From the NCBI RefSeq assembly GCF_037042905.1, contig NC_087245.1, positions 24,182,001 to 24,246,000 of the forward strand: 64,000 nucleotides of DNA, in the 5' to 3' direction. Positions 3,049-60,269 of this stretch are shown here, in pieces (within the stretch, counting starts at the first letter, position 1; each line of letters begins with the position of its first letter). The DNA comes from Lytechinus pictus. Lineage: Eukaryota. The notes beneath the pieces are model-generated. The model saw nothing but the letters and a program-made list of their open reading frames with translations. It did no database searches and was not told the DNA's origin. The position numbers and the translations under genes were made by a program.

Positions 3049-4847
3049 TTGTCTCGCCTGCATAGCAGAGTGAGACTATAGGCGCCGCTTTTTCGACGGC
3101 GGCGGCGTCGTCAACATTGAAATCTTAACCAAGGTTAAGTTTTTGAAATGTCATCATAACTTAGAAAGTATATGGGCCTAGTTCATGAAACTTGAACAAG
3201 GGTAATCAAGTATGACTAAACATCCTGCTTGAGTTTCAGGTCACATGACCTAGGTCAAAGATTATTTAGGGTCAATGAACTTATACCATGTTGGGGGAAT
3301 CAATATCGAAATTTTAACCAAGGTCCAGTTTTTGAAATGTTGTCATAACTTTGAAAGTATATGGACCTAGTTCATAAAACTTGGACATAAGGGTAATAGT
3401 GTATCACTAAAGATCCTGCTTGAGTTTCAGGTCACATGATTAAGGTCAAAGGTCACTTAGGGTCAAACTATGGCCATGTTGGGGTTATTTGAGGAATTAT
3501 CATCATAACTTTAAAACTTTATGGATCTAGTTCATGAAACTTGGACATAAGAGCAACCATGTATCCCTGAATATCATGTGTGAGTTTCAGGTCACATGAC
3601 TAAGGTCAAAGGTCACTTAGGGTCAACGAACTTTGGCCATATTGGGGGTATAGGAGGAATTGTCATCATCCTAAGGATACGGGGGGGCTGAATTGATTCA
3701 GCCCCCCCTCAACATTTTTCGCGATAAATCCGCCGCTCAAAATTTTTTGACCGCGTCGTTCACCGACATTTTACTTTTAAGTCTCGCGCAACTTTTGAGA
3801 CCAAAATTGTGACCCCCGGGTACGCGGTTCCGAAATTACGCAACATTTCGTAAGTGCATGCAGACCCAAAATTACTCAAAAACGTGAATTTGTGTGCAAA
3901 TCCAATGCAAATAATGTTTTTAGCCAAAATTCATATATTGTATCATTATTTTTCCTTTTACTGCTTAAAATCAATTAATTTTATCTTGCTGATGGTCAAA
4001 ATAAAGTCCCCGACAATTTCCATTGAAAAAAACAATAAAAAACAAAAAGTAAAAAAACAAAGAAATACATAAGAAATTTAGAAAACAATAAAATACATAA
4101 GAAAATAAATGTGATGTTGAAATTTTTGAAAAATAAATTTGATCAGATGCCTATCTTGAGTCTGTGAAACAAAAATTAGAATTTTAAGGGCATTATTTTA
4201 TTAATTAGAGCAAACTCATGATTTTACGCATAAATTAACATAATTAATGAGCAATGAGATTTTTCGCAAAATTTGATATTATAGTTTTGTAGATAATGCC
4301 ATGGGTAAGGGACGTGCCAATTTTCGTCGTGATCGCGCGATCGACGGCCGAGATCATAAGGAGGGGCTGAATCAGCCCCCCCCCCTGAGTCTTCTTAGGC
4401 GTCGAAATAGCCCAGTCTATTTAGGGTTAAAAGTCTATGGATCTAGTTCATGGAACTTTGACATAAGAGCAGCAATGTATCCCTGAATACCCTGTCTGCG
4501 TTTTAGGAACATGGCCAAGATCAAAGGTCATTTAAAGGTCAATGAACTCTGGCCATGTTGGGAGTATGTGTTGAATTGGCATCATAACTTAGGAAGTTTA
4601 TGGATCTAGCTCATGAAATATCGACAGAAGGGTAATCAAATATGAATGATTGTTTTGCACATGTCTTAGGTCACATGATCATGGTCAAATGTCATTATGG
4701 GTCAATGGACATAGTATTTTATTTTCGTATATACGTATTAGTGTTTTCTTCTGTGAATAATTATTCATTAGCTGTTTTCAAAGGAAGCACTGCTGCTTTA
4801 TCGAATTGCGTAATGCAGGCGAGACTGCCAGAGGCGTTCCACTTGTT
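3049..4847 (+). mobile_element. Non-autonomous Helentron-like (DINE/Tsp/pearl-type) element, itself interrupted by a MITE
   Basis: Subterminal inverted repeats GTCTCGCCTGCAT / ATGCAGGCGAGAC, a GGC microsatellite near the 5' end, ~120-150-bp internal tandem units, 3' end CCACTTGTT, inserted in a T-run. Confidence 0.75.
3670..4426. mobile_element. piggyBac-type MITE (related copy at ~26676-27431)
   Basis: (C)CCTAA...TTAGGG|TTAA termini, palindromic GGGGGCTGAA..TTCAGCCCCC blocks, internal sequence shared with the copy at 26676. Confidence 0.6.
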
Positions 4848-4917
4848 GAAATGTCATCATAACTAACAAAGTGTATAGACCCAGTTCATGAAACTTATGA
4901 GGGAAATCAAGTATTAC

Positions 4918-6170: not shown

Positions 6171-9100
6171 GTGTAGCTTTGAAATTAAGATAAATTTATC
6201 CTCGTGTAGCCTTGAAATTAAGATAAATTTATCCTCGTGTAGCTTTGAAATTAGGATAAATTTATCCTCATGTAGCCTTGAAATTAGGATAAATTTATCC
6301 TCTTGTAGCCTTGAAATGAGGATAAATTTATCCTCGTGTAGCTTTGAAATTAGGATAAATTTATCCTCATGAAGCCTTGAAATTAAGACAAATTTATCAT
6401 CGTGTAGCCTTTAAATTAAGATGAATTTATCCTCGTGTAGCCTTGAAATTAGGATAAATTTATCCTCATGTAGCCTTGAAGTTAGGATAAATTTATCCTC
6501 ATGTAGTCTTGAAATTAAGATAAATTTATCCTCGTGTAGCCTTGAAATTAGGATAAATTTATCCTCATGAAGCCTTGAAATTAAGATAAATTTATCCTCG
6601 TGTAGCCATGAAATTAAGATAAATTTATCCTCATGTAGCTTTGAAACTAGGATAAATTTATCCTCATGTAGCCTTGAAATTAGGATAAATTTATCCTCTT
6701 GAAGCCTTGAAATTAGGATAAATTTATCCTCGTGTAGCTTCGAAATTAAGATAAATTTATCCTCATGTAGCCTTGAAATAAGGATAAATTTATCCTCATG
6801 TAGCCTTGAAATTAGGATAAATTTATCCTCATGTAGTCTTAAAATTAAGATAAATTTTTCCTCGTGTAGCCTTGAAATTAGGATAAATTTAACCTCGTGT
6901 AGTCAATCCTGACTGGTTGCCAACCAAGGAAAGAAGAAGAAGAAGAAGAAGAAGTAGCTTTGAAATTAAGATAAATTTATCCTCATGTAGCCTTGAAATT
7001 AAGATAAATTTATCCTCGTGTAGCCATGAAATTAGGATAAATTTATCCTCGTGTAGCTTTGAAATTAAGATAAATTTATCCTCGTGTAGCCTTGAAATTA
7101 AGATAAATTTATCCTCGTGTAGCTTTGAAATTAGGATAAATTTATCCTCATGTAGCCTTGAAATTAGGATAAATTTATCCTCTTGTAGCCTTGAAATGAG
7201 GATAAATTTATCCTCGTGTAGCTTTGAAATTAAGATAAATTTATCCTCATGTAGCTTTGAAATTAAGATAAATTTATCCTCATGTAGCCTTGAAATTAGG
7301 ATAAATTTATCCTCATGTAGCATTGAAATTAGGATAAATTTATCCTCATGTAGTCTTGAAATTAGGATAAATTTATCCTCGTGTAGCCTTGAAATTAGGA
7401 TAAATTTATCCTCGTGCAGCTTTGAAATTAAGATAAATTTATCCTCATGTAGCCTTTAAAATTAAGATAAATTTATCCTCGTGTAGCCATGAAATTAGGA
7501 TAAATTTATCCTCGTGTAGCTTTGAAAATAAGATAAATTTATCCTCGTGTAGCCTTGAAATTAAGATAAATTTATCCTCGTGTAGCCATGAAATTAGGAT
7601 AAATTTATCCTCATGTAGCCTTGAAGTAAGGATAAATTTATCCTCATGTAGTCTTGAAATTAAGATAAATTTATCCTCGTGTAGCTTTGAAATTAGGATA
7701 AATTTATCCTCATGTAGCCTTGAAATTAGGATAAATTTATCCTCGTGTAGCTTTGAAATTAGGATAAATTTATCCTCGTGTAGCCTTGAAATTAGGATAA
7801 ATTTATCCTCATGAAGCCTTGAAATTAAGATAAATTTATCCTCGTGTAGCCATGAAATTAGGATAAATTTATCCTCATGTAGCTTTGAAATTAAGATAAA
7901 TTTATCCTCGTGTAGCCATGAAATTAAGATAAATTTATCCTCATGTAGCTTTGAAACTAGGATAAATTTATCCTCATGTAGCCTTGAAATTAGGATAAAT
8001 TTATCCTCTTGTAGCCTTGAAATTAGGATAAATTTATCCTCATGTAGCTTTGAAATTAGGATAAATTTATCCTCGTGTAGCTTTGAAATTAAGATAAATT
8101 TATCCTCATGTAGCTTTGAAATTAAGATAAATTTATCCTCATGTAGCCTTGAAATTAGGATAAATTTATCCTCATGTAGCCTTGAAGTTTTGATAAATTT
8201 ACCCTCATGTAGTCCTGAAATTAGGATAAATTTATCCTCGTGTAGCCTTGAAATTAGGATAATTTTATCCTCGTGCAGCTTTGAAATTAAGATAAATTTA
8301 TCCTCATGTAGCCTTGAAATTAAGATAAATTTATCCTCGTGTAGCCATAAAATTAGGATAAATTTATCGTCGTGTAGCTTTGAAAATAAGATAAATTTAT
8401 CCTTGTGTAGCCTTGAAATTAAGATAAATTTATCCTCGTGTAGCTTTGAAATTAGGATAAATTTATCCTCATGTAGCCTTGCAGTTAGGATAAATTTATC
8501 TTCATGTAGTCTTGAAATTAAGATAAATTTATCCCGTGTAGCTTTCAAATTATGATAAATTTATCCTCGTGTAGCTTTGAAATTAAGATAAATTTATCCT
8601 CATGTAGCTTTGAAATTAAGATAAATTTATCCTCATGTAGCCTTGAAATTAAGATGAATTTATCCTCATGTAGCCTTGAAGTTAGGATAAATTTATCCTC
8701 ATGTAGACTGAAATTAAGATAAATTTATCCTCGTGTAGCCTTGAAATTAGGATAAATTTATCCTCGTGTAGCCTTGAAATTAGGATAAATTTATCCTCAT
8801 GTAGCCTTGAAATTAAGATAAATTTATCCTTGTGTAACTTTGAAATTAAGATAAATTTATCCTCGCGTAGCCTTGAAATTAGGATAAATTTATCCTCGTG
8901 AAGCTTTGGAATTAAGATAAATTTATCCTCATGTAGCTTTGAAACGAAGATAAATTTATCCTCATGTAGCTTTGAAATTCGGATAAATTTATCCTCGTGT
9001 ATTCTTGAAATTAGGATGAATTTATCCTTATGAAGCCTTGAAATTAAGATAAATTTATCCTCGTGTATCCTTGAAATTAAGATAAATTTATCCTCGTGTA

Positions 9101-9530
9101 GCCTTGAAATTAGGATAAATTTATCCTCGTGAAGCTTTGAAATTAAGATAAATTTATCCTCATGTAGCTCTGAAATTAAGATAAATTTATCCTCATTTAG
9201 CCTTGAAATTAGGATAAATTTATCCTCGTGTAGCTTTGAAATTAAGATAAATTTATCCTCGTGTATTCTTGAAATTAGGATGAATTTATCCTCATGAAGC
9301 CTTGAAATTAAGATAAATTTATCCTCGTGTATCCTTGAAATTAAGATTAATTTATCCTCATGTAGCCTTGAAATTAGGATAAATTTATCCTCGTGAAGCT
9401 TTGAAATTAAGATAAATTTATCCTCTTGAAGCCTTGAAATTAGGATAAATTTATCCTTGCGTAGCCTTGAAATTAGGATAAATTTATCCTCATGTAGCCT
9501 TGAAATTAAGATAAATTTATCCTCCTGTAG
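6171..9530. repeat. 30-bp tandem satellite, ~110 units, consensus CTTGAAATTAGGATAAATTTATCCTCRTGTAGC
   Basis: Directly visible array; each unit contains the 16-bp palindrome AGGATAAATTTATCCT. Confidence 0.98.
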
Positions 9531-9619
9531 TATTAGCAGGATGAACTAATCCTTATAATTGTAATAGATTTGTATGATATATTTATTTGATCTGTTATTC
9601 CCATTAAATGGTTGTATTA

Positions 9620-23227: not shown

Positions 23228-23329
23228 TCTGTCATATCAGGCCGTGGACCAAAATAAAAAGGGTTAGCCCAAAATTACGACGTGGCCCATTTTGAAAATC
23301 TTTGATGTTGTATTTGTCTCAGTGTGAAT

Positions 23330-23390
23330 ACCGCCAATCCAAACCCATGCAATACCCACAATTCCTTGCCATGCCCCTTTCTCTTTGACC
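23330..23390 (+). promoter_or_regulatory. RPS8 core promoter: CCAAT, Staf/ZNF143-like site and TCT/5'TOP pyrimidine tract
   Basis: CCAAT at ~23334. TACCCACAATTCCTTGC (23353-23369) resembles the ZNF143/Staf site. CCCCTTTCTCTTT (23374-23386) is the typical ribosomal-protein TCT/TOP start. Confidence 0.7.
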
Positions 23391-23404
23391 TCTGGCCGTA
23401 CAAT

Positions 23405-23408
23405 ATGG
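23405..23408 (+). CDS. RPS8: RPS8 exon 1 coding part (ATG G)
   Basis: ATGG|gtacga lies 28 nt after a pyrimidine tract. The phase-1 join with exon 2 gives Met-Gly-Ile-Ser, as in vertebrate RPS8. Confidence 0.85.
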
Positions 23409-26400
23409 GTACGAAAATTTCTATAACTCTGAGTAGAATCTTAAAACATCGCCCTTCCCGTGTAATTATCAGGATTCTAGATGAATGTTAATGCTAATCA
23501 AATACTAGCTACACATAATATATAAGATTTGATTCAAATTCTATGTTATTTAATCGAGAAATACTGTTGAAAATAGTGTGGAATTCCCTGTGATGTTCGG
23601 TTCATAACATATGCATCGATCAATTGAACGCGAACGAATGTTATTTAAATTCGACTGCCATGGAACTGCTTACCAATAAGATATATATATTTCTACTTTC
23701 ACTGACTGGGTCAGACAGTGGAAGCGGTAGTATGAATGATGGCAGTTAATTTAAGGTCCATCATGTCCATCGTGAACTAAGGCCCGATTATTACTTATTA
23801 GTAAAATAATTCCCCACTTTGACAATGTTTGAAGTTTGCGCAGAGCTTAGTTAGTCCGGTCTCGGTCGAGACTGATTTTCATTTATTTTTAGAATGTCTG
23901 CGGCGCGGCCGTGCGCATCTTTCACTGACACTCGCTGTCTGCATGCTAGACCAAAAGCTTCGGTCTCTGTTATGTTGGTTGTTCAGCTGAACTCCGTTGG
24001 CTTCACTCACCAAATACAGAGACCGAAGTTCTAGCGCGATCTGTACAGGGGACTCAATGGCCATATGTTTATGTACTTAAGATCGGATAAAACGGGGAAG
24101 TGAATTTGCGCGACAGCCGAGGTAAGTCACTGTTTTTGTTCCTTTTAACTTGATTTTTCTCCGTTTTTTGGCAATTAATGCCAAGAGGGAATATTAATTT
24201 GCATTTTGGTCGCGTTAATTTTCAAAATTTTTATTCATTAAACTTTAAAGACAAAAATTGAAGAGCCCCGACGGGGGGATTTTGCATTGCAAGTCCCCTA
24301 ATGGTGGCTGCACGCTAGCAAGCCGTCTGTGTACGAGGAGAAATTTAAAAAAAAAAAAAAAAGTTAAAAAACTCCTCGAAACAGACGGCTGCCAGCTGTC
24401 TATCTGCATGCTAGCACTTGACTTAGCAGTGCCAGTGCCCTCACATTGGGTGATTTCAACAGTATGGTTGGAGCTACCCCTTATCGACCACCTAATTTTC
24501 TAAGCATCATATCTGCGAAAATATTTATCAGTTTTACCTAGTTTTCGTCTCATTTGTGCAGAAAATTGAGCAGATCAGATTCCCATGTTTTGATCGGCGA
24601 CTTCGATTCAATTCGCGTACCGGTATGCACGGCCAATATGGGAGACTCCAACAGGGGAGACAATCTCTCATATTGGAAACTTGCTTTGATAAAAAGGACA
24701 AAAGAAACAACAACCAAGGGATCGATATTTTTTCCACCCAAAATTTTGTCTCGCTTGTGACTTAGCCAAACTTGTTAGGTCAGAAGTAGCCTGGATCTGG
24801 AGGCGTCTGGGGAGTAAAAGTCATCTACTCTACGTAGGCTTACTCCCCACTGACGCCTGGGACGCCCCCGGGGGGGGGGGCACTCGACCAAAAAAGTGGT
24901 AGGGCCAGGGGTGTGCCGCGGGCGAGACAAAAAAACGGGGGCCTTGGAGTGGGCTTATTGTAAAAAGGAGGGTCCTCGGAACGGGCTTCGGAACTACAAA
25001 TGTTTGTGAAAACGGGGGTCCTTGGAACGGGTCGCCTGCGTGTGCATCCCAATGGAACGAGCATACGTGCATGCAGCTAGCATGGCGCACGGGCGCTGGC
25101 TGTGCCAGCGCAGAGGCGATGGTCGGAAAGCGCTCTCCGGCCGCTTTTCACCAAAATTGCGGCTCATCGTAGCAGATCGATGCGACCGGAACGGCGTAAC
25201 GGAAAATATGCGAAGCTTTGGAGCGGATTTCTTTCTTCTTTTTTTTTCTGGATAAGAAGAAAATGCTATGCCTTGGAGCGGCTTTCTTTGTTCTTTTTCT
25301 CAATAAGACAAAAATGCTATGCCTTGGAACTGAAATTTGAGTGTAAAAATGGGGGTCCCCTCCGCGGCACATACCCACTATGCATTATATACTGAGTGAC
25401 CCCCCCTCCCCCCCCCCCCCCCCCCCCCCGGGGGGACGCCAAGGTATATTCACGCACATACGGCCACTAAATCTGAAACTCTGGCCCCCGAGATTTCTAC
25501 TTTCCCTCTAAAAGATCTAGCCCTAAAAGTACATGGGGTTCAACTTCATTTCCAACATTTCTGCGATATCGATTTCGTTTTTAAAGAAGAATTCAATAGA
25601 AAAACGAGAAAAGTGTTATGAAAAGATGGGAAGAGCTTACGGCCGTGTTTACGTCGCCATCTTGATTTCTTTGTCTTCCGCTTGGCGACAGCACGAAATC
25701 GCGTGAACTCCATGGAGCTGCGGATTGTGCCTAGATCATGTGCGCACAGGGCGGGCAAAATTCAAATTTTCGCCACGCCACATTCTACTTCCCTGTAAAA
25801 TTTCTAGACCTAAACAGTGTAAATAGGCTAGAACTTCATTTCCGACATTTATACATTATTGATTTCATGTAAGACAAATATTCATGATGTTGGCGCCCTC
25901 TCTATGCATCTCGTAGCTACTAACAGAGAAAAAGATGGCGACGTAAATTTGACAAGTTTTTTCCTGCCTTCTCATGATATATTTCTCGGCTTTTTAAATG
26001 AATATTTGTTTAAAAATGAAATCAATGTATAAATGTCGGAATCAATCATCATATTAAAAAGAAAAATTGTTTCATCTTTAGAGGCAGCATGTGTTCCTTA
26101 AAGTGATCATTTCACTTTGTTCTGATTTTAAAAAATATCCTTTTGGTTCCTGAAAATGGGCTAAACGTTAGGCTTATAGTGTAAAAATACCATCCCAAAA
26201 GTTTCAAAGTATTATATTTACAGGATCAATTTTAAAACCTTGGAGATGTAAACCAAAGTTTGAAATAATCGGGAGTTGGTTTCAATGACTATGTGTATAC
26301 AGGGAATCTGTGCACCACAACACATTAATTCTAGATGAACACAGCATGACCTACATACAGTGTGTACAAGGTATACACTGAATGTACAGTGCAGCTAATA

Positions 26401-29400
26401 GTGTGTGTATAGGAGATACACACAACAGAAGGCAGTCAAAATAGCCAACGGACTTTTTGAATTGGAGAAAACTGGTCATAAGCTGAACCCGTCTACTAGA
26501 CGGTTCTCAAAATCAGGCTAATAAATTGCTACTTGTATCTAAATTAGAGTTTTTCATCCTATATTGTGGTCTGTTTCAGGGTTTTTGAGGACAAATACAG
26601 GCACTCATACGCACGTTTCAACTCAGTTTGAGAATTTTTTAAATCAGCTGCTCACAAAGTTAAACAATACCTTTAACCCTAATTCTCCCGGGGAGGGGCC
26701 ATAATGGCCCCCCCCCCCTCGACAATTTTCGCGATATATCTGCTGCGCAAAATTTTTTCACCTTGCCGCTCACTGACTTTTTACTTTCAAGTCTCGCGCA
26801 AATTTTGAGACCAAATTTGTGACGCCCGGGTACGCGGTTGCGACATTACGCAACATTATGTAAGTGCATGTCAGACCCAAAATTGCTCATAAACGTGATT
26901 TCATGTACAAATCCAATGCAAATTGTGTATTAAGTCAAAATTCATAAATGTATCATTATTTCTACTTTTACTGATTAAACTTAATTAATTTGGCTTTGTT
27001 TATGATCAGAATTAAGTCTGGAACGATTGCCATCGAAAAAACAATAAAAAAACAAAGAAATACATAAGAAATTAAAAAAACAATAAAATACATAAGAAAT
27101 CGGTCTTGGTTCCAGAATTTTTTTCATTCACAATTGTTAGGAATGCTAGAATATTTTCACCAAAAAATAGCTTTCTAGGAGCTTTATTTAGTGAATCAGA
27201 GCAAAAAGTATGATTTCATGAATAAATTAGCATAATTAATTCATATAAAATAAAAATATATGAATTCAGTGAGATTTACCAATGCAACTGCGTTGATTAC
27301 GTCATTCTGTACCATCATGCAAATTTTCGTTGTGATCGCGCAATCCGCAGCTGAGATCTTAAGGGGGGGCCATAATGCCACCCCCCCCCCCCGGGAATGA
27401 CAAGAATAAAAATACCCCGGGAGATTTAGGGCTGAAATAATTAACTAAAATAGAGGAAAACAGTAACATTGACACCGGTGTCAATGTTACCTCTGAAGTA
27501 CAATTTCAGTTTTGTTAAGAGTTCAATGTACCAGCCTGTCACTTAGTCACAATTATTCATTACAATGATACGAGTATTGTTAATAGATTTCTTATTGAAA
27601 ATAGATTGTTGAAATTGTAATTTTTTTTCTCAAATTGAAAGGTATTAGTTTGAAATTTATGAATCAAAATAGGAATGTCAAGAATAATTTATCCAAGAAT
27701 GTAGGACAAGATTGAGTAAAGTTATGCTGTTATTGTGTTAATATTGCTGTAGTATGACTCGCTTTCATAGACAAGAATATTTATATTTAGACTAACGTTT
27801 TATTTAAGAAAAACTTTTTGGGTACTTTTTCGAGGCAATAAAACCAATAATACATTTTTTTCCATCTTTCCACAGGTATCTCACGTGATAGATGGCACAA
27901 AAGACGAAAGACTGGAGGAAGATGTCCTCCTATTCGCATGAAGCGAAAGTTTGAGCTGGGTCGTCCACCTGCACTCACAAAGGTAATGCTTTTTTATGTT
28001 TACTTGTCAATCATAAATGTTACAGTAGTAATTAACTTAATTTGCCAAAACTAGACATTGATGCTTAATGAAAACCTTGTATTACCTCAATGAATAATGT
28101 CAAATTGTAGATGAATGGTAAAAAATACAACAAATGTTGATTAATAATAATCATGTTAACTAAAAGAATTCCCACTTAATATTTTTAGTATTTTTTGTAG
28201 GCTTTTGTCCTTCAGTAATTCAATCACCAACGGGATATTAGGAAAGGGAGATGCAGGATGATGTTAATTTTCATTTGTTGACAGGCTGATTGTCGTTTTG
28301 ACTTTCATCAGCGTTGTGGATTTGACTTTGTCATAGTTACACTGACTGCAGTCTCCTGATTACTCATCCTATTTATTTCATTTGATTGATTTTTAATATT
28401 CTATTGGTTCTATCATTCTATTTGGTTTTATCTGTTGAACAAAATTATTTTCTTTATTTGTATGTTTTGATTGATTTTTAATTCTCTATGTCTATTGGTT
28501 TTATCATTTATTGTCTCGCCTGCATAGCAGAGTGAGACTATAGACGCCGCTTTTCCGACAGCGGCGGCGTCATCAACATTGAAATCTTAACCAAGGTTAA
28601 GTTTTGAAATGTCATCATAACCTAAAAAGTATAGGGATCTAGTTCATAAACTTGGACATAGGGGTAATCAAGTATTACTGAACATCCTGCCTGAGTTTCA
28701 GGTGACATGACCAAGGTCAAAGGTCATTTAGGGTCTATGAACTTAGACCATGTTGGGGAAATCAATATCGAAATCTTTACCACTGAGGTTAAGTTTTTGA
28801 AATGTTGTTATAACTTCGGAAGTATATGGACCTAGTTCATGAAAATTGGACATAAGGGTGATAGTGTATCACTGAAGTTCCTGCCTGAGTTTCAGGTCAC
28901 ATGACCAAGGTCAAAGGTCACTTCGGGTCAACGAACTTTGACCATCTTTGGGGTATTTGTGGAATTGTCCTAACTTAAGAATTTTATGGATCTGGTTCGT
29001 GAAACTTGGGCATAAGAGCAATTAAGTATACCTGAACATCCTGTGCAAGTTTTAGGTCTCATGACCAAGGTCAAAAGTCATTTAGGGTCAACAAACTTTG
29101 ATAATGTTGGGGGTATTTGTGTAATTGTCATTGATCATAACTTTAAAAGTTTATAGATCTAGTTCATGAAACTTGGAACATGAGAGATACCATACATGTA
29201 TATCCCTTAATATCTTGTGCATGTTTCGGGTCACATGATCAAAATCAAAGGTCATTCAGGGTCAATGAACTTTGGCCGTGTTGGGGGTATTTGTTGATTG
29301 GCATCATAACTTAGAGAGTTAATGGATCTACACATGTAGTTCATGAATTACATAAGGGTAATCAAGTTTGAATGATTGTTTTGCACATGTCATAGTCATA

Positions 29401-32400
29401 GATCACATGATCATGGTCAAAGGTCATTCAGGGTCAATGAACTTTGGCCGTGTTGGGGGTATTTGTTGATTGGCATCATAACTTAGAGAGTTAATGGATC
29501 TACTCATGTAGTTCATGAATTACATAAGGGTAATCAAGTATGAATGATTGTTTTGCACATGTCATAGATCACATGATCATGGTCAAAGGTCATGTTGGGT
29601 CAATGGACTTAGTATTTTATTATCATATGAGTGTTTTCTGTTGTGAATAATTATTTAATTGCTGTTTTCAAAGTCAGCACTGCTGCTTTATCGAATCCTG
29701 TGATGCATGCGAGACTGCCAGAGGTGTTCCACTTGTTCTTTTTGTCTCACCTGCATAGCAGAGTGAGACTATAGGCGCCGCTTTTCCGACGGCGACGGCG
29801 GCGGCGGCAGCGGCGTCAACACCAAATCTTAACCTGAGGTTAAGTTTTTGAAATGACAGCATAACTTAGAAAGTATATGGACCTAGTTCATGAAACTTGG
29901 CCATAAGGTTAATCAAGTATTACTGAACATCCTGCCTGAGTTTCATGTCACATGACCAAGGTCAAAGGTCATTTAGGGTCAACAAACTTTGATAATGTTG
30001 GGGGTATTTGTGTAATTGTCATTGATCATAACTTTAAAAGTTTATAGATCTAGTTCATGAAACTTGGAACATGAGAGATACCATACATGTATATCCCTTA
30101 ATATCTTGTGCATGTTTCGGGTCACATGATCAAAATCAAAGGTCATTCAGGGTCAATGAACTTTGGCCGTGTTGGGGGTATTTGTTGATTGGCATCATAA
30201 CTTAGAGAGTTAATGGATCTACACATGTAGTTCATGAATTACATAAGGGTAATCAAGTTTGAATGATTGTTTTGCACATGTCATAGTCATAGATCACATG
30301 ATCATGGTCAAAGGTCATTCAGGGTCAATGAACTTTGGCCGTGTTGGGGGTATTTGTTGATTGGCATCATAACTTAGAGAGTTAATGGATCTACTCATGT
30401 AGTTCATGAATTACATAAGGGTAATCAAGTATGAATGATTGTTTTGCACATGTCATAGATCACATGATCATGGTCAAAGGTCATGTTGGGTCAATGGACT
30501 TAGTATTTTATTATCATATGAGTGTTTTCTGTTGTGAATAATTATTTAATTGCTGTTTTCAAAGTCAGCACTGCTGCTTTATCGAATCCTGTGATGCATG
30601 CGAGACTGCCAGAGGTGTTCCACTTGTTCTTTTTGTCTCACCTGCATAGCAGAGTGAGACTATAGGCGCCGCTTTTCCGACGGCGACGGCGGCGGCGGCA
30701 GCGGCGTCAACACCAAATCTTAACCTGAGGTTAAGTTTTTGAAATGACAGCATAACTTAGAAAGTATATGGACCTAGTTCATGAAACTTGGCCATAAGGT
30801 TAATCAAGTATTACTGAACATCCTGCCTGAGTTTCATGTCACATGACCAAGGTCAAAGGTCATTTAGGGTCAATGAACTTAGACCATGTTGGGGGAATCA
30901 ACATCAAAATCTTAACCTAAGGTTAAGTTTTTGAAATGTCATCATAACTTAGAAAATATATGGACCTAGTTCATGAAACTTATACATAAGGTTAATCAAG
31001 TATCACTGAACATCCTGCATGAGTTTCACGTCACATGACCAAGGTCAAAGGTCATTTAGGGTCAATGAACTTTGGCCGAATTGGGGGTATCTGTTGAAGT
31101 ACCATCATAACTTTGAAAGTTTATGGATCTGATTCATGAAACTTGGACATAATAGTAATCAAGTATTACTGAACATCCTGTGCAAGTTTCAGGTCACATG
31201 ATCAAGGTCAAAGGTCATTTAGGGTCAATGAACTTCGGCCAAATTGGGGTATTTGTTGAATTACAGCCATAAATTTGAAAGTGTGTTGGTCTAGTTCATA
31301 AAACTTGGACATAATAGTAATCAAGTATCACTGAACATCCTGTGCGAGTTTCAGGTCACATGATCAAGGTCAAAGGTCATGTAAGGTCAAAGAACTTTGG
31401 CCACGTTGGGGGTATTTGTTGAATTGCCATCATATCTCTATAAGTGTATTGGTCTAGTTCATAAAACGTGGAAATAAGAGTAACCAAGTATCACTGAACA
31501 TCTTGTGCGAGTTATAGTAGTTTTCAAAATCAGCACTGCTGCTATATTGAATCGCGTGATGCAGGTGAGACGGCCAGAGGCATTCCACTTGTTGTATATT
31601 GCTATTATTTTTTTTTTTTTTGGGGGGGGGCTCTTCTCTATTATATTATTTATTTTATCAACATTACTCCTCTGTCATGCAGTTATTAGAGTTCCTCAAT
31701 TTTGTCATAAGGATATGTGTTTGTTATTAATTTATTTTGTTTTGCACAAAAGTATTGCTATATGCTATTGTTGGAATTGAAATCTGTTGACTGATTGCTT
31801 ATAATTGATAATAATGGTAGTCCACTTTGAGTAATATGCCTTCATTACGAATGAGATATTTAAATTCATGCACACAAGTTAAGGGAAAGTGTGATTCTTT
31901 TTTTTTTTCATTGTAGATTGGAGTCAAGAGGATACATCTTGTACGATGCATGGGAGGAAACATCAAACGCCGTGCTCTGCGTCTGGACACAGGAAACTTC
32001 TCCTGGGGATCAGAACGTAAGTAGAGTCTTCTAAGTACCCTCTGAAGCCTGTTGAAAGAGTTGCAACAAAACCTGACAAAAAAATAAAACATTACTACAA
32101 ATTGCCTTCCACTGATTGGATAAAGTCAAGCTGCGTTTGAATTTTTTGAGTTATGATTTGTTGCAACTCGTTCTTTAATGGGCACCCAATGTGCTTGAAG
32201 ATGATCTTATGCAATTACTGCCCATACTGTGTGATGGGACGGTTCTCAACCATTTTGCATTTGTTAGATTGCTCTTTGGATTCCTAAAGAGACTGTTCAC
32301 TGGTGTTATGTCTTCATGTTTTTCAAGCAAAAGAGTGATTTTCAATTTTGATATAATGCAGAATTAGAATGTGGTGGTTCTCATCATTGATATTTTTATA

Positions 32401-35400
32401 CAAGTCTTTGGTTTTTCCTCTCATTACATTTGTTATTACAGTGATTCATAATTAAATTTGATAAGAGCCATAGTTTGTTACGAATTGCAGAATGATGCCT
32501 TAAGATTAGTCTTTCTGAAGGGGTAGACCCTTGGTGAAGACCATTGTCATAGTTACACTGACTGCATTCTATGTATAATTCACTACATGTATGCAATATG
32601 CATTTACAACACAAAGTAAAACTATGTATTTATTGTCCCTTTTGGTTTTTCTCCCCCTTCCAGACACTACCCGCAAGACCCGCATCATTGATGTTGTGTA
32701 CAATGCAAGCAACAATGAGTTGGTGCGTACCAAGACTCTGGTCAAGAATGCCATTGTTCAGATTGACTCCACGCCATTCCGTCAGTGGTATGAGGCACAC
32801 TATGCTCTACCTCTTGCCAGGAAGAAGGGAGCTAAGCTGGTGAGTTTCTTCCTGCCCCAAGAAATGGAGCAACTCAATAGATCAGCAAAAAGTGAAAGGT
32901 CTTGGCCAAAAATGACACTAATTTAGGATAATTTGGTTGAAGCTGTAGCAGAATGATGTTGAAGATTAGTCTTTCTGACAGGCTGTTTGTCGTCTTGACA
33001 TTGAATCAGCCTTATGGAGACAAGTCATAGTTACACTGACTGCTATATGCTTTGTGATATTGTTTTGCAGCATGTAAAAATGTAGATTTGGGTTGTACTG
33101 TTTTTGAAAAAAAAAATATTCTAAAAGCTTTTTGACAAAATATGAGTTCAAAACAGAGTAGTGAAATAATTCTGTATTGTATCTGTTTGCCTTTACTCCA
33201 ATAAACTTTAGTCATTTTTGTCTCGCCTGCATAGCAGAGCGAGACTATAGGCGCCGCTTTTCCGACGGCGGCGGCGGCGTCAACATCAAATCTTAACCTT
33301 AGGTTAAGTTTTTGAAATGACATCATAACTTAGAAAGTATATGGACCTAGTTCATGAAACTTGGACATAAGGTTAATCAAGTATTACTGAACATCCTGCT
33401 TGAGTTTCAGGTCACATGACTAAGGTCAAAGGTCATTTAGGGTCAATGAACTTGGACCATGTTGGGAGAATTATTTTCAAAATCTTAACCGAAGGTTAAG
33501 TTTTTGAAATGACATCATAACTTAGAAAGTATATGAACCTAGTTCATGAAACTTGGGCATAAGGTTAATCAAGTATTAGTGAACATCCTGCTCGAGTTTC
33601 AGGTCACATGACTAAGGTCAAAGGTCATTTAGGGTCAATGAACTTTGGTCAAGTTGGGGGTATTTGTTGAATTACTATCATAACTTTGAAAATTTATGGA
33701 TCTAGTTCATGAAACTTGGACATAAGGTTAATCAAGTATTAGTGAACATCCTTCCTGAGTTTCAGGTCACATGGCCAAGGTCAAAGGTCATTTAGGGTCA
33801 ATGAACTTTGGCCAAGTTGGGGGTATTTGTTGAATTACCTTCATAACTTTGAAAATTTATGGATCTAGTTCATGTAACTTGGACAGTAGGTTAATCAAGT
33901 ACCACTGAATATCCTGTGCGAGTTTCAGGTCACATGACCATGGTCAGTGGTCATTTAAGGTCAATGAACTTTGGCCGTGTTGGGGGTCTTTGTTGAATTA
34001 CCATCCTAACTCTGAAGTTTATGGATCTATTTCATAGAACTTGGGATATAAGAGTAATCAAGTATCACTAAACATCCCCTGTGAGTTTCAGGTCACAAAA
34101 CCAAGGTCAGTGGTCATTTAAGGTCAATAAACTTAGGCCATGTTGGGGTAATTGTTGAATTGCCATCATAACTTTGAAAGTTTATGGATAGAGTGAATGA
34201 AATGTGGACATGGGTGTATTTGACAAGTCTTAAGTCACCGTTCAAATGTCATCTATGGTCAATGAACGTGGTATTATGTCATTATATGAATGGTGTGTTT
34301 GTGAATGATTATTTTATAGTAGTTTTCAAAGTTAGCACTGCTGCTATATTAAATTGCGTAATGCAGGCGAGACTGCCAGAGGCGTTCCACTTGTTAATTT
34401 TTGTTCTGCCTCTGCCATCCGTAGATATTTGCTTGAGGTATGTCTGGGTCATTTGTCTTGTTTTCATTCTTGCAATAAAATTTGACTAAAACTTTGTGGT
34501 TCCTCATTTTTATTTTGTATTCGTACAAAATTCATATAATTTCATTTTTTTGCTCCAATTATAGATTGACCACTGGTTTTGTGTGTAACTTTGCAATTCC
34601 TGCAAGTAATTTTCTTTTCAAAGATTTCATATGGAAAAAAATACCAAATTATGATTCTGATTCTGTCATGTTTTGTATTGAAATTTTATAATTTTGACCC
34701 TGATTACCTTTTCAAATTTGAAATTTCTCTTTTTATCATCAACAGACTGAAGATGAACAGAAGGCTTTGACTGTGTCTGGTTCCAAGAAGGTTCAAAAGA
34801 AGTTTGAGGAACGCAAGAAGACCGCCAAGGTTGCCTCGGCCCTTGAAGAGCAGTTCGGTACTGGCCGTCTCCTGGGTAAGTTCTTGTGCTGAATATTCAT
34901 TCCAATCGCGGTATATATTGGGGTGAAAAGTGACCTGCCCCTAAGATAACACACCCTTCACAGCATATTCAAAATATCAGTTTCCCCCCTCAAATTTCAA
35001 CTCTGTTGCAAGATATGCGTGATGTGGTATTCTGAATACCATTGCAACTGTTTTAACCTCTTAACATGTGTCTACCTGTTGACTCAATCATTTTTTTTCC
35101 TACAGTGTAATTCATTTAAGTCCAATAGAGAGCAATGAGTTATCTACCGCGATACATGAAGATTGCAGGGGCAAAAGTAATTCCTCAATTGATGCATTGA
35201 TATGATTATTGTGCACAAGTGATACAATTTAATTAACTTTTGCAGGATTCCTCACACTGGAAGGTGCTCTTTCTTGAAAAAGAAGGGGGGGGGGGGAATG
35301 GGTGAACATAAAAAAGCGAAGCTGAAGTTAAAAATTGGGCCTGAATTCAAAGTTTTCTTAAGGATACCAATTTGCAAACTAGATGTAGAATGGACTTCAA

Positions 35401-35868
35401 ATTATCGCTTGAAAGTGATAATATATGTACTCCCTGGACAACAATACTAGTGGCTCTGCAATCTAATGATTGGTTTTACTAGGATCATGCTGGATATACT
35501 GCCACACTAACTATTCTGGGGGAACTTTTCTGTTGGTTTACAAAGTACATCTGCTGAGCTATTGAAGAATGAAATTGAAAATCAACAGGCTAATTGAATG
35601 TCACAATTTTCATGGTCTGCATTAGTAAATGTAATGTTCTTAACTCCATAATTTGTTTAGGCCACATTACTTTTGTCCTGTTTGATTTTGTTTTTTCTTT
35701 GAGTCAATTCACATATGATTTTTAATCTCTTGTCTCGTTCTTTTTATGTTAAACACAGCATGCATTGCTTCAAGACCTGGCCAATGCGGCCGTGCCGATG
35801 GCTACATCCTAGAAGGCAAGGAGCTCGACTTCTACATGAGGAAGATGCGTGCCAAGAAGGGCAAATAG
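23405..35868 (+). CDS. RPS8: 40S ribosomal protein S8 (eS8), join(23405..23408,27876..27982,31917..32016,32664..32839,34746..34875,35759..35868), 208 aa
   Basis: The spliced translation [16 protein letters not shown]...[80 protein letters not shown]...[36 protein letters not shown] is clearly eS8. All introns are GT..AG, phases are consistent, and the exons sum to 627 nt. Confidence 0.97.
24867..25432. mobile_element. CCCGGG-ended MITE, TSD GGGACGCC (RPS8 intron 1)
   Basis: CCCGGGGGGGGGGGCACTC / GAGTGACCCC..CCCGGG; exact 8-bp TSD. Confidence 0.7.
26676..27431. mobile_element. piggyBac-type MITE
   Basis: TTAA|CCCTAATTCTCCCGGGG ... CCCCGGGAGATTTAGGG. Confidence 0.6.
27876..27982 (+). CDS. RPS8: RPS8 exon 2
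   Basis: ttccacag|GTATCTCA...ACAAAG|gtaatg; encodes [35 protein letters not shown]. Confidence 0.97.
28252..28350 (+). ncRNA. SNORD46: Box C/D snoRNA, SNORD46/U46 (snR63) homologue, copy 1, RPS8 intron 2
   Basis: Terminal stem TGCAG/CTGCA, C box ATGATGT (28258), D box CTGA (28342-28345). The guide GTCATAGTTAC is antisense to the conserved 28S segment GUAACUAUGAC. The 3' end GACTTTGTCATAGTTACACTGACT matches my recollection of human SNORD46, which is also hosted in RPS8. Confidence 0.88.
28511..31593 (+). mobile_element. Head-to-tail Helentron-like elements with an internal 891-bp duplication (RPS8 intron 2)
   Basis: Same subterminal IRs and 3' CCACTTGTT ends at 29737, 30628 and 31593. Confidence 0.75.
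31917..32016 (+). CDS. RPS8: RPS8 exon 3
   Basis: ttgtag|ATTGGA...GAAC|gtaagt; encodes [33 protein letters not shown]. Confidence 0.97.
32486..32566 (+). ncRNA. SNORD46: Box C/D snoRNA, SNORD46 homologue, copy 2 (dual guide), RPS8 intron 3
   Basis: Stem (GAAT)TGCAG/CTGCA(TTC), C box ATGATGC, D' CTGA at 32515 preceded by GATTAGTCTTT, C'-like GTGAAGA, guide GTCATAGTTAC-A and D box CTGA at 32558. It lies ~100 nt upstream of the acceptor. Confidence 0.9.
32664..32839 (+). CDS. RPS8: RPS8 exon 4
   Basis: ttccag|ACACT...AAGCTG|gtgagt; encodes [58 protein letters not shown]. Confidence 0.97.
32946..33045 (+). ncRNA. SNORD46: Box C/D snoRNA, SNORD46 homologue, copy 3 (dual guide), RPS8 intron 4
   Basis: Stem TAGCAG/CTGCTA, C box ATGATGT, D' CTGA at 32975 preceded by GATTAGTCTTT, internal hairpin AGGCTG..CAGCCT, C'-like ATGGAGA, guide AGTCATAGTTAC-A and D box CTGA at 33036. 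Confidence 0.9.
33215..34395 (+). mobile_element. Complete Helentron-like element (RPS8 intron 4)
   Basis: TTTTTGTCTCGCCTGCAT...ATGCAGGCGAGACTGCCAGAGGCGTTCCACTTGTT with internal tandem units. Confidence 0.8.
34746..34875 (+). CDS. RPS8: RPS8 exon 5
   Basis: aacag|ACTGAA...CTGG|gtaagt; encodes [43 protein letters not shown]. Confidence 0.96.
35759..35868 (+). CDS. RPS8: RPS8 exon 6 (coding part to stop)
   Basis: acacag|CATGC...AAATAG; encodes [36 protein letters not shown]. Confidence 0.97.
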
Positions 35869-35936
35869 GTCCAAAGCCTTTCTTCTCGTGGGAGTACTGT
35901 ACAATATCCAGAAGCAGCAACAACAAACAAAAAATC

Positions 35937-35942
35937 AATAAA
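35937..35942 (+). terminator. RPS8 polyadenylation signal
   Basis: AATAAA ~70 nt after the stop codon, followed by T/GT-rich sequence. Confidence 0.7.
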
Positions 35943-36571
35943 AATGTCATAAAAATTGAAAATGCCCGATTCTTGTTTCATTTCTCTTTAATACAGTATG
36001 TGATTGCTTTGATGATTTGGAGTATTTTTGTGAAAGTGTTTGTATTTCCTATACCAATTGCTTGAGTATGAAGATCTGAATTGAATATGAAGTGCGTGCA
36101 CATGTGGAAATACACACAAGGGGGGGGGCAGCCTTTTTGCCTTACCCTGGCCCTTGAAAGTATGTGTGAGACATTCTGTATAAAAGAGTATCACAATGAA
36201 TGGTCTCTGCCAGCCTTATGTTGCAGCATTGCATTGTTAAAACAAAATGTAGCATATAGCTTTCAAGTTTTTTGTTACATTGTGTTCATACAAAAGCATG
36301 GATTGATGTGCCGTCCATCTGTGCTTGGTGGCAAGCAATGCTTCTTCTATAGGCGTACTCCGGGATAAAAATTATTACATGCAAATAAGCAGAGTGAAAT
36401 TTGAGAAGCAAAATGCTGAAATTTAATCTAAACCTGTTATGTTTTTAATTAAAACTGACAATATTTTGTGAAGACGGTTATATGCATGAAGTCTTGAATA
36501 TATGCAATAGATAAGCTGATGTCATGTCCACTCTATCCTTTTTCTTACGATATTGCATGAAATCTTGTTAA

Positions 36572-37174
36572 AGGACAAGTCCACCCCAACAAAAAGTTGA
36601 TTCAAATAAAAAGAGAAAAATCCATCAAGCGTAACACTGAAAATTTCATCAAAATCGGATGTAAAATTAGAAAGTTATGGCATTTTAAAGTTTCGCTTAA
36701 TTTCACAAAACATTTATATGCACATCCTGGTCGGTATGCAAATGAGGAGACTGATGACGTCATCCACTCACTATATCTTTTGTATTTTATTATATGAAAT
36801 ATTAAATATTCTAATTTTCTCCCCATTGTCCAGTGAAACATTGATTAATTCCTCCCTGAACATGTGGAATTAGCATTATTTAATACTATATGGTTCAGTC
36901 AAATTGGTCCTTATTGTCAAATTTGTAAAAAATGAAATATTGTATAATTTAAACAATAAAAAACAAAAGAAATAGTGAGTGATGGACATCATTGACTGAC
37001 CCATTTGCATGTCACTGAGTTGTGCATATCACTGTTTTGTGAAAAATAAGTGAAACTTCAAAATGCCATAACTTTTTTATTTTACATCCGATTTGGATGA
37101 AATTTTGAGCGTTATGTTTGTTTGATTTTTCTCTTTTTATTCAAATCAAATTTTTGTTGGGGTGGACTTGTCCT
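36572..37174. mobile_element. Kolobok-like MITE (TTAA TSD)
   Basis: TTAA|AGGACAAGTCCACCCCAAC ... GTTGGGGTGGACTTGTCCT|TTAA; a truncated copy lies at ~53787-53960. Confidence 0.8.
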
Positions 37175-38359
37175 TTAAATTTAATAGTTGAATTATTGTT
37201 AAATGATGTGTCTCCCTTGTTACAAAGAAGTTTCAGTAATTATTATCTTACACATTTAATCAATAGTCAATCCAATTTGTTTTTTCATTAATGGAAATGA
37301 ATAAATATTACTTTATATAATCAAATACAAAATAATGAAATTGCATCAGCTCGCACATTACATATTAATGGAGACGTGCATGGAACTGATTCACTGAAAT
37401 AACAAAATTGTTGAAACAATCTTAACATTTTAATTCTTGATCAAACTGCGATTGAATTTTCAGTGTTTGTCTGGTTTTACATTATCTGTTAAAATCTTTT
37501 TCAGCCCTGAGTTTCCCAATTAATATGTAAATTAGTTAACATCCATAGCACATTCATATGTGATCTACTTTTCTGTTTGATTCAGCGAGTCACTGAGTGG
37601 TAGGCAGTGTGCAGCTTGATGATGTCTTGCGTGGATGTGGGCTGAAACTATTCCCCAGAACAAGTGAAAATATCTGAATTGACGAAATGATTACCCAGAA
37701 CCCTTGTGGGTGCCACTTTTTACAGGCGGGTTCAAGGGGAGGGGGCAGTTGGTCACAGCCCCCCCCCCCCCCCTCGATTGGCAGCCAAAAAAAAGAAAGA
37801 AAAGATTACAGGAGAAAGAAAGAAGTGAATAAAATACAGGAGCAGTCTGGTAGCGAGGTGAATGTAGTACCAGTATCAAGAGTATTGGAACATGATGATG
37901 AACCCTTCACTTGCCAAACTAATCATCTGGGCGATCTGGCAGATCTCTGCTGCATGTGGTTCCTAAGAGTGTCCCTTAATTTTACAAGAAATTGTATTTG
38001 GAACAAACAAAAAAAATTCCAAGCACACTAACATTGGTATCAATAAAAGGCTTCTTTACAGCTTTTTCCCCCATTTGCTGAGTTGTAAAATATTATTACT
38101 GGAAATATGAAGACAAATTGAAAATGTTTTAGGAGAAAATGAGAAAAAATGCAATTTTCGCTAACGAAATATTTTGTCCATCTCTATTTCATAACCGTAT
38201 CAACTTAATAGTTTGGGTATGTTAAAAAAGTCCATAATTATGCAAAAAATATTCTCACATTTCGAGCTTTCAATCTCCAAAAAAAATTTTCATCTCGCAT
38301 TTCTTTGTTATAAAGCGGACTTAAATACTGTCATTTTTTACGTTCAGTTTTGCCCTTAA

Positions 38360-46242: not shown

Positions 46243-49200
46243 ATGGCATTGCTTACATGGACATTGTTTCCAAGGCAAACGTCTGGCAGTGTTTTCAGAT
46301 GCCAAAGGGTGCAAGGGTTCAGTATTTGTAAGTTTATTTTAAAATTCATGTACATTCCGTTTCAAGTAGTTACATGTAGATACATATATCTACATGAATG
46401 CAGGGAAGACCGCGTTCAGCTGCAAAATTAAATCATATCCCTTTTGCTTAAATAAGTTTTCAAGATTACAATGTATGGTTTGGCAAAGGGTATGAAGACT
46501 GGATATATTTTGAATGTTCAATTATGGCTTTGATGCAAGGAAAGCCCCAAATTATTCACTAATGTTTGGAATGTGCTACTATACATACATGTGCCAAAAA
46601 GGTGAAAGTACAATGTTTTTATGTTCTATTTCACAAATAAGGATGAATTTCTGTAGATAAAAGAATCCAATTCATTCTTAAAATATTTTTACAAATAGAT
46701 GAAGTCCAGTTTTCTATTTTCTAAAAAGACAATTCTTTGTTCAAATTTTTCTTATGAGAGATCAAGTTTCTTTAAAATGCTATGAATTCATTATTCTATT
46801 ATTTTTGTGTGTGTGTTTTTTATACACAGCATGGAAAATTGGGGACTTACTTAATTCTAGATGTCACAGTACAGTGTGTTTTGGAAGTCAGTCTTTTACC
46901 ACTTACATGTACTTTCACTTGGTGTTAACTTTACTTTGGAATTTCCATGTTAAGCATTATACCAAGTATCACTGTAATGAGTGATTATTTTTGTATTCAT
47001 CTGCAGATCTGTTGATGCTGCTGGCTAACATTACGCAGACGGACAGCAACAACGTGACTACATCTATGGAGTTTGAGTACACCACTATATTCATTACTAA
47101 TTCCACCATAGAAATGTTCATTCCATCTACATCTATAACAGCAAGTACATTGTCATCACAACCGTCATCCTCGGTGGAATCTTCTTTCGATGTGGCGCCC
47201 TCTACAGCCCTATACCCATCTCCTACTCCATCAGGAATATCTCAAATATGGACTAGTGATGTCACTACATATACTGAAATGACTTCTGATCTTGTTTCCA
47301 TAATAAATCCTACAATAATGACATCACCAGTAACTCCTATGTCAAGGACATCTACATTATCACAAAGTTTGGTGAGTCCGATAGCATCGCACACTGTGAT
47401 TTCAACGGAAGAGGTGCGTGTGACATCATCCATACTGGAATATTTCTCACCATCTTTCACGGAGTTCTCATCTTCACCATCCTCTTCATTGGGTACATCA
47501 TTTATAAAGTCAATTCCAACAGAATCGATGCCACCATCTGTTCCCATGCCAACAACTTTTCCAGTCTTATCATTATCATCATCATTGTCATCATCACCTT
47601 CATCACAATCACTGTTCCCATCTTCCTTTCCATCATCTTACATGGCATCACCATCTTCCAACTCAGTAAATGAAGTTTTACCATCATCAAGTGCTGCATT
47701 TACCACAACTCAGTCCCTCAGTTCAACTCACATTGTTCCTACCACATCACCTCCAGTGGACCCTCCCACCCAACTTCCTCTAACCACAGCTGGACCAGAC
47801 CAACTCTCCATCCTACAATGGTTCGGCATTGCGGTAGGAGGGGCTGCAGTATTGTTCATTTTCTGTGAGTATTGACTTAGTTTTACCTACTGCTTGAGAT
47901 CTTTGAGTTCTTGTCAGAGTTAAATCTTTCCCTAGCCTAGATACCTCTAAAGTATTGTAGTTAAAGCAGAATATAAACAATGATTTTCAGTAATTACACA
48001 ATTTTATGGAAAGTTTCTTTATAGATCATACACCTTAGTTTTTGTCAATAGAAGCATGGTAAAATTTGACACTTGAAAAGGCTTGAATAGTGTATAGTGG
48101 AAACAGAAAAGATTTCAAATTGTAGTAGAGAGAATAAATTTTTGGTGATGTAATATTTTAAAGATTATTATTTGGTATCTTTAAATGTGTGTGCTTGTAA
48201 TGATGCCATGACTGAGTATAAATCTTTTTTATTTTGTGTTCCAGTTCTGCTCTTCCATTGCTACCAACTCAGGCAACGTGCCATTAGGAAACAAAAGAAA
48301 GAGATGAAGAAGGAAATATTAGATTTCTCACAGAGTAATCGGAACGACCGCATCAGCTCATGGAGGAACAGCCTGGCATTGGATGCCATGGCAACACATA
48401 TAGAACTTCCTCATGTAAGTTCAAATGGAATCATCTGGGCAAGACAATTTTGACTTGTCAGTTGTACTTCAGGGCAGTGTTTCACAAATTCTCCTGTCAG
48501 TGATTATCACAAAGAAATCGGCTCTCAGCCAATCAGATACAAGGATTTTGAAAGCTTGTTCAGCTTTTTCGTGGCAATATCCGATATTAAGATGCTTCAA
48601 ATGACCCCATGGGATGTTGCCTAAATACTGTATGTGTCATATATTTGAGACTGATTTTTTTTTTCCACAGACTTCAAATGGGATGTCCTATGTGTTTGAT
48701 GAATCCTTACAGCTTGTTTGATCAAGAATACATTATGAAGTGGTTTCACTATTAAAAAAAAAATACACATAGATTGAATTTTAACATATCTGCTATAAAC
48801 AGTGGTAGCATTGATTAAGGGGATAATTTTAACACTAATGAGCAATACAAAAAGCTTAAAAAAGATAAAGATATGAAGGTGAAATAAAAAGGTTTTGGTT
48901 TGGTCTGCTCTCTATTCCAAAACTACAGGGTTGGGATTTTCAAGTATTAATGTGGAGATTTTATCAAGGTTACAATAAACTTTTTTTTTTAGGTTGAAAG
49001 CACTTTCAACATATTAGTGGTCAATTGAACTTACTATTTTTTAAAAGTCATTTCTAATCAATATAAACTTGAGTTTGGATTCTCTGGATAGCAGGTGAAC
49101 CCTTGGCTATTAGAAAATAACTATTTTACTCCCTATGTTGAGTTAGAATTTAAGAGATGATGCAAGGCCTTTACTGTTGTTGTATTGCAGGAAGATAGTA

Positions 49201-59500: not shown

Positions 59501-60269
59501 AGACGGACAAGTTAAAAAAACTAAAAGCATTCATTTTAGTTACAAGCCACATACATGGACTCTCAAACTGTTTCCTTGAGTATAAAGTTACATAAATTAT
59601 ACGGCTTCATCATCTCTATCAAGTTTATTCTAAACCCTTTATAAGACTTGCAATTGCAATAATGAAATGCTTTGAAAAATACAATTATTAACAGTATCTG
59701 TTGTTAAGCGCAATATAAATGTTGCATATTAATATCATCATTATTCATTCAAGTGTCTCTCTTTATATTTACTTGGCTTTCATTTGTCTGTAAATTGATC
59801 AATAATAAATGCCGCATTTGGTGCCCATTAACTTTACTGATGCATGTTATATAATTATGATAAACTTTATGATTTCATATTGCTGACCATGACTGTGAAC
59901 GAACTGCAAGACAAGTGGATCGCCTCTGGCAGTCTCGCCTGCATTACGCGATTCAATATTAATAGTAGGTCAAACGGAGTCAGGCAATGTAACAAGACTT
60001 TAATCAAAACATGTAACATAAGCTTGGTATCATATCACCAAGTTTCCTACATGAAATAAAACTGCATAGTGTTTTTTTAAGTTTATAATCAAGGACAGAA
60101 TCATACACTGTAAATAATGTATTTCAAACAATTTCCGGTTTAGACTTCTTCAAAACAAATTCACATGTTAGACAAGTATCCAATTAGACAAATTTGACAT
60201 TTTACATCATCCTAACTCCACTACATTTTGTTCTCTCATTCATCTACCAGTCTGATTTTCCCTCTTTAG

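Follow-up and report, generated by a model that had tools for sequence, protein, structure and literature searches.

We analysed a 64,000-nucleotide stretch of the sea urchin Lytechinus pictus genome (contig NC_087245.1, positions 24,182,001 to 24,246,000; hereafter the window) that holds the gene for ribosomal protein RPS8 (eS8), and found that introns 2, 3 and 4 of this gene each contain one stem-closed small nucleolar RNA (snoRNA) unit of the box C/D type in sense orientation, here called copies 1, 2 and 3. As judged from their sequence, the three units are probably genes of the SNORD46/snR63 family that guide methylation of an adenosine in helix 69 of the large subunit (LSU) ribosomal RNA (rRNA), and copies 2 and 3 would likely direct the same modification to a second adenosine as well, equivalent to A917 in yeast and A1634 in human. 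This reading builds on boxes, stems, intronic positions, splicing of the host, two complementarities and, in copies 1 and 3, a central hairpin, all of which were observed directly. The units are real and had been correctly identified in an initial annotation of this DNA, and most of the finding was already known; the second guide, next to the D' box, is the new part.

The first guide, GTCATAGTTAC, occurs exactly three times on the + strand of the window, at 28330, 32546 and 33024, and a search allowing one mismatch gave nothing in the window beyond these three occurrences, a count that is weak when taken alone, as at least three matches were obtained in 8 of 100 shuffles. In each unit the guide is followed by A-CTGA. 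Copy 1 (intron 2, 28251-28351, + strand) has its C box at 28258, the guide at 28330-28340 and the D box at 28342-28345; its D' box is degenerate (TTGA, about 28278) and has no rRNA guide, and its central hairpin has a loop of 5 nucleotides (nt). Copy 2 (intron 3, 32485-32567, + strand) has its C box at 32492, the guide at 32546-32556 and the D box at 32558-32561, and represents a short form in which C and D are 70 nt apart, with a D' box at 32515-32518, a short stem and a C'-like GTGAAGA. Copy 3 (intron 4, 32946-33046, + strand) has its C box at 32953, the guide at 33024-33034, the D box at 33036-33039, a D' box at 32975-32978, a central hairpin and a C'-like ATGGAGA. The C boxes (ATGATGT or ATGATGC) each show one mismatch to RUGAUGA, at the last base, the D boxes are perfect, and the terminal stems comprise 5, 5 and 8 base pairs (bp), respectively. 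Boxes, stems and exon map thus agree with the initial annotation on one unit in each of the three introns. The fold stability of the units is unremarkable (z -0.7 to -1.5), and these z-scores are uninformative.

The complement of the D guide (11-12 nt) is perfect in all three Rfam-confirmed eukaryotic LSU rRNAs, which stem from other eukaryotes and were taken from eukaryotic contaminant contigs within prokaryote assemblies. The nucleotide at D+5 is the second A of GUAA, as the initial annotation had stated; the position agrees with yeast Am2256/human Am3760, and the target sequence agrees with the spacing of the yeast modifications 2256-2266. The site is reported as yeast Am2256 (guided by snR63), human Am3739 (3760; guided by SNORD46), fly Am2634 and Dictyostelium Am2522 (PMC5699541, PMC8817022, PMC11014333). 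With regard to the source of the rRNAs, a eukaryotic 28S motif occurs in at least 49 stretches (L124-L172) of reference assemblies from prokaryotes, and the five that were checked with Rfam are eukaryotic rDNA, i.e. contamination; a scan of viral contigs for the rRNA motif gave 0 matches.

The family to which the initial annotation assigned the units, SNORD46/U46 with its snR63-equivalent site, is supported by a covariance model, R1, trained on 20 non-urchin RPS8-hosted units. Of its ten matches in the window the three copies ranked first, with 57.3 bits (expectation value, E, 2.9e-9) for copy 1, 40.1 bits (8.7e-6) for copy 2 and 52.1 bits (3.3e-8) for copy 3, followed by a match of 17.7 bits (E 0.28); because the C box, guide and D box also served to select the training units, these scores are partly built in and not fully independent. 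Across 15 aligned animal units, 91% of 45 cells are paired at the three pairs of the central hairpin, compared with 13-47% for slid controls, and all three pairs show double-sided changes, although reading the structure off the same 15 sequences gives it an edge over the controls. This family hairpin, situated between D' and C' with a GUYNU loop of 5 nt, is present in copies 1 and 3 with three to four contiguous pairs and missing from copy 2 and from the unit of a clam-like RPS8 gene. An alignment of fungal snR63 shows the same central motif (PMC3116282), and the shared hairpin thus speaks for a common origin on more grounds than the guide. Human U46 is named in the same source among the snoRNAs with extra rRNA pairing (PMC3116282). 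When the central region was folded together with the helix-69 flanks, in folds without shuffle control, pairing upstream of the target was suggested in several units, a result on which no claim is based. Rfam matches to DdR4, snoR442 and GlsR7 were set aside, as they are explained by the common helix-69 guide alone.

Copies 2 and 3 share a second antisense element. The initial annotation treated the three copies as equivalent and overlooked both this element and the loss of the hairpin from copy 2. The sequence GATTAGTCTTT is common to the two copies and is followed by a perfect CTGA (32504-32518 and 32964-32978), an internal stem and the C'-like box. The element lies directly 5' of the D' box on the + strand, at 32504-32514 in copy 2 (position -5 being 32510) and, in identical form, at 32964-32974 in copy 3 (position -5 being 32970). 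This 11-mer, or 12-mer when the first D' base is included, has a perfect complement in all three LSU rRNAs. Shuffling of the C-to-D' segment gave p values of 0.0015 (copy 2) and 0.0011 (copy 3), and a comparable rRNA complement was found at 8 of the 484 CTGA sites in the window, namely the three D guides, the two D' guides and three others, two of which lie within one repeat. For copy 1 a second guide was rejected, its complements outside the D guide being only 9 nt long and non-conserved.

The D'+5 position of the second element lands on the A after GAAAG. When the yeast modification list was fitted, position 917 was best or joint-best in all 38 loci among the matches listed, and in this register 14 of 14 modified bases fit on six LSU loci. 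We take the target region to be helix 35a, and it lies 1234-1635 nt away from the helix-69 target. The fly counterpart, Am1117, is equated with human 1634, yeast 917, Arabidopsis 926 and Dictyostelium 1131 (PMC11014333). It belongs to 61 high-confidence methylated (Nm) sites of the fly, has a MethScore of about 0.96 which falls on fibrillarin knockdown, and is methylated in the fly only among the six species listed in that source, the other five being unmethylated; its fly guides are CD28a-d, which are hosted by Nop60B and also guide Gm1108, the SNORD80/snR60 site (PMC11014333). The urchin thus appears to target, by way of another scaffold, a genuine site that can be methylated. Conserved snoRNA families are known to acquire new antisense elements (PMC6984369).

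The same fly data bear on the possibility that the D' element serves as a folding chaperone or docking site on pre-28S rRNA, while another snoRNA, perhaps SNORD80-like, methylates the adenosine or none does. This would be in line with the role of CD28a-d at both fly sites (PMC11014333) and with the report that snoRNA pairing can aid rRNA folding (PMC5699541). We consider it very unlikely, as the D' geometry is canonical for a methylation guide, and the published cases of extra base-pairing adjoin the main target (PMC3116282), unlike the distant urchin site. Copies 1-3 contain no complement to the SNORD80/snR60 position (Gm908/Gm1625/Gm1108) and gave no Rfam match to that family.

Several observations weigh against the reading of the units as SNORD46/snR63 genes with, in copies 2 and 3, a second guide. 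At the gathering score Rfam gave 0 matches in the whole window, and the SNORD46 model (RF00218, clan CL00061, alias U46/U40) scored only 26.5, 18.2 and 30.4 bits for copies 1, 2 and 3, respectively, compared with a gathering score of 40 bits. The C' boxes carry 1-2 mismatches, the 3' splice site lies 3571 nt from copy 1 and 1706 nt from copy 3, and depth on copies 2 and 3 was zero in three ordinary RNA-seq runs. Moreover, none of the 110 other distinct eukaryotic helix-69 units shares even 8 nt of the D' guide; none of these 110 was recognised as echinoderm, and the D' guide is known from one genome. The D' guides of copies 2 and 3 represent one origin, not two, and were noticed after the fact.

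Concerning the scores, the Rfam cut-off appears to be vertebrate-biased, because homologues from coral, termite-like and L007 RPS8 genes also miss 40 bits (four units, 25.5-36.9 bits), whereas a fish locus passes with 61.5 bits; five other invertebrate loci gave no Rfam SNORD46 match at E up to 1. The check by Rfam model suggested in the initial annotation thus stayed below the gathering score (18-30 vs 40 bits), but R1, trained on non-urchin units, finds all three units. The copies are accordingly assigned to the wider clan or function and are not formal members of RF00218.

The single, post hoc origin and the absence of the element from 110 of 110 other units and from copy 1 would also be expected if the three copies were ordinary single-guide SNORD46 paralogues in which a functionless chance match to rRNA had been spread by duplication, and the lack of methylation in the five listed species (PMC11014333) fits this too. 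We nevertheless regard it as unlikely. The chance of such a match at this fixed position is about 0.001-0.006, and the D'+5 base falls exactly on one of the 61 high-confidence fly sites (PMC11014333). Furthermore, copies 2 and 3 are identical in only 66 of 103 aligned columns, and a 21-nt gap in copy 2 removes the hairpin, yet a 17-nt block spanning guide and D' box has remained identical.

The zero depth on copies 2 and 3, the hairpin missing from copy 2 and the mobile-element insertions between copies 1 and 3 and their 3' splice sites would all suit a case in which at least one copy is a non-expressed pseudogene, the likeliest candidates being copy 2, which is truncated, or copies 1 and 3, which are displaced by transposons. 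From the 6%, 6% and 25% of the three runs that the analysis covered, 28, 129 and 6747 reads were aligned, all exonic, and copy 1 lies outside the aligned region; these libraries were probably blind to RNAs of 70-90 nt, because they are long-insert 150-nt libraries and intronic reads appear nowhere in them. Guides and D boxes are perfect in all copies, the C boxes are close to consensus and the terminal stems are kept, and copy 2 lies only 102 nt from its 3' splice site. In a depth-2 contig from another sample, four listed differences fall around copy 3 and none within it, with a fifth unplaced, which is weak evidence. Taken together, we find a pseudogene quite improbable. The inserted element itself is a non-coding repeat of 0.9-1.8 kb; it contains tandem units, its flanks are T-rich, and inverted repeats of 13 bp lie subterminally. 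It occupies 28513-31590 (three tandem units) and 33220-34395, with more ends at 3051-4850 and about 59932-59944, and its insertion downstream of copies 1 and 3 moves both snoRNAs far from the 3' splice site. We liken it, presumptively, to non-autonomous elements of the Helentron/DINE-1 type.

If the SNORD46/snR63 genes are active as proposed, established C/D snoRNA biology predicts that each spliced intron would release its unit, which would be trimmed and assembled with 15.5K, NOP56, NOP58 and fibrillarin, and that methylation would take place five nucleotides from D or D'. Copy 1 may be the ancestral-type form, as suggested by its location in the intron of vertebrate SNORD46 and by a U-rich, guide-less D' region like that of the outgroups. 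The D' guide would then have arisen in a forerunner of copies 2 and 3, and copy 2 would later have lost its hairpin. The simplest order is thus duplication, gain of the D' guide, a second duplication and trimming; loss of the D' guide from copy 1, or gene conversion, are alternative histories compatible with the data.

The host gene (23405-35868, + strand) comprises six coding exons (23405-23408, 27876-27982, 31917-32016, 32664-32839, 34746-34875 and 35759-35868, all on the + strand) which encode 208 amino acids (aa), as judged by exon boundaries and translation. All introns are GT-AG and lie after coding nucleotides 4, 111, 211, 387 and 517, and the ATG is directly preceded by a pyrimidine tract; exon 1 was placed by sequence alone. 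RNA reads from the three runs splice 32016 to 32664, which is the joint of exons 3 and 4, and continue into both exon 2 and exon 5. A protein cluster named Lytechinus pictus eS8 matches the exon 4 peptide at 100% identity and starfish proteins match it at 93-95%, which places the host in or near this sea urchin genus. Intron 1 also contains, at 24095-24130, a strong 5' splice-site-like motif (GAG/GTAAGT) downstream of a promoter-like stretch, possibly from an alternative non-coding exon. In introns 1 and 5, scans for C/D units under relaxed criteria never found box, stem and rRNA guide together in one candidate.

To what extent this host pairing is shared by other animals was seen when metagenomes were scanned for the combination of C box, guide and D box, which gave at least 123 loci. 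Among the matches listed, 25 of 123 loci have RPS8 exon hits, and the snoRNA is in sense orientation in all 25, located in intron 2, 3, 4 or 5; the remaining 98 listed loci have no RPS8 hit. Classification covered the 25 listed RPS8 loci and gave about seven groups, with three loci from stony corals, 13 annelid-like, four termite- or roach-like, one clam-like and one teleost locus, and two further groups without lineage label (three loci: L007, L100 and L122). The annelid-like label is weak, resting on L032, L072 and snoRNA similarity, and an over-long fish protein (P0013) that distorted the lineage calls was left out. One coral locus (L024) shows 94-96% identity to a named coral eS8. Among the corals, the RPS8 gene of L024 (1558-1764) is without intron 2 and that of L003 (3564-4134) has it, and the snoRNA is in the intron 3 position in both.

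Because stony coral RPS8 loci host the unit, the pairing of RPS8 with the helix-69 snoRNA appears, from these loci, to date to the cnidarian-bilaterian split. The earlier claim that the pairing predates vertebrates was right but was already in print, since Drosophila Me28S-A2564, which is equated with SNORD46/snR63, is hosted by RpS8 (PMC11014333). Multiple copies are likewise not special to the urchin, because chicken has two SNORD46 copies, in RPS8 introns 2 and 3 (PMC2653536), Xenopus has two (PMC11014333), and one annelid-like contig carries copies in introns 2 and 4 (L118, L119). The triplication within the urchin lineage that the initial annotation proposed remains conjectural, no other echinoderm locus having been found.

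The other passengers of RPS8 vary. Neither SNORD55 nor SNORD38 was found in the urchin gene (23300-38000), where Rfam gave no match at E up to 10 and the guide scan gave none, in keeping with the initial annotation, which had recognised no such guides. The fish RPS8 control returned both SNORD46 (61.5 bits) and SNORD38 (53.6 bits), which in this teleost gene (L033:246-701) lie in introns 2 and 3, respectively. A 10-nt stretch in intron 1 of the urchin gene (26236-26250) resembles the SNORD55 guide; neither a C nor a D box accompanies it, Rfam gives no match, and it is probably due to chance. In the clam-like RPS8 gene (L057:599-5322), the helix-69 guide is joined by three Me28S-Am982-like units and by four SNORD58-like ones, of which two exceed the gathering score, a set that differs from that of vertebrates. 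Chicken has U38 in RPS8 introns 4 and 5 (PMC2653536), and fly RpS8 additionally hosts CD62 (PMC11014333). Elsewhere in the window, tandem repeats of roughly 30 nt form a long array at 6411-9545 with repetitive open frames on both strands, and an open frame of 296 aa at 46985-47875, rich in Ser, Thr and Pro and with a hydrophobic end, resembles an exon of a mucin-type membrane protein.

The addition to what was known is that SNORD46 has been kept in RPS8 from corals to vertebrates while moving among introns 2 to 5. snoRNAs are generally described as mobile between hosts at the scale of eukaryotes (PMC3511168), and SNORD46/RPS8 is an animal-scale counter-example, like SNORD100/RPS12, the precedent for deep host retention (PMC3412847). 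The open-access literature searched gave nothing on sea urchin RPS8 snoRNAs or on SNORD46 guiding this second site, with subscription papers, snoRNA databases and bioRxiv supplements outside the scope of that search and the methylation maps of nematode, zebrafish and protist outside the comparison of the second site. From the second guide follows a prediction, exact to one nucleotide, for a deuterostome ribosome that is unmapped. Should it be confirmed, the supposedly fly-specific mark would either have arisen convergently or be an older one of invertebrates that vertebrates lost, and the paralogues would show an idle D' site turning into a new guide after duplication. We tentatively entertain, without favouring it, the idea that the fly-only 28S mark at A917/A1634 evolved again in urchins, through a new guide on a spare SNORD46 as opposed to the SNORD80-type guide of flies. 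One rRNA mark would then be served by two unrelated scaffolds, caught mid-way in one gene with ancestral, dual-guide and trimmed copies. The finding is of relevance to specialists in snoRNAs and rRNA modification and involves no new kind of system.

Compared with known systems, the urchin units resemble SNORD46/snR63 in their D guide and target, in the central hairpin of copies 1 and 3 and in their host gene, and copy 1 occupies the same intron as vertebrate SNORD46 in chicken and in a fish locus. They differ in being three, in their Rfam scores below the cut-off and in the lack of the hairpin in copy 2, and the D' guide of copies 2 and 3 is absent from the Rfam SNORD46 consensus and from the fungal snR63 sequences compared (PMC3116282). 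Drosophila CD14/Me28S-A2564 guides the same helix-69 site (Am2634) and is also hosted by RpS8, but is a single gene with one listed target and is not listed as a guide of Am1117 (PMC11014333). Drosophila CD28a-d/Me28S-G1083a-d, in contrast, share with the urchin D' guide the Am1117-equivalent target, but combine it with Gm1108, reside in Nop60B and have a different scaffold (PMC11014333). The vertebrate RPS8 set (SNORD55, SNORD46 and SNORD38A/B) is like the urchin gene in that a single host carries several snoRNAs and in that duplication has taken place within the gene (PMC2653536).

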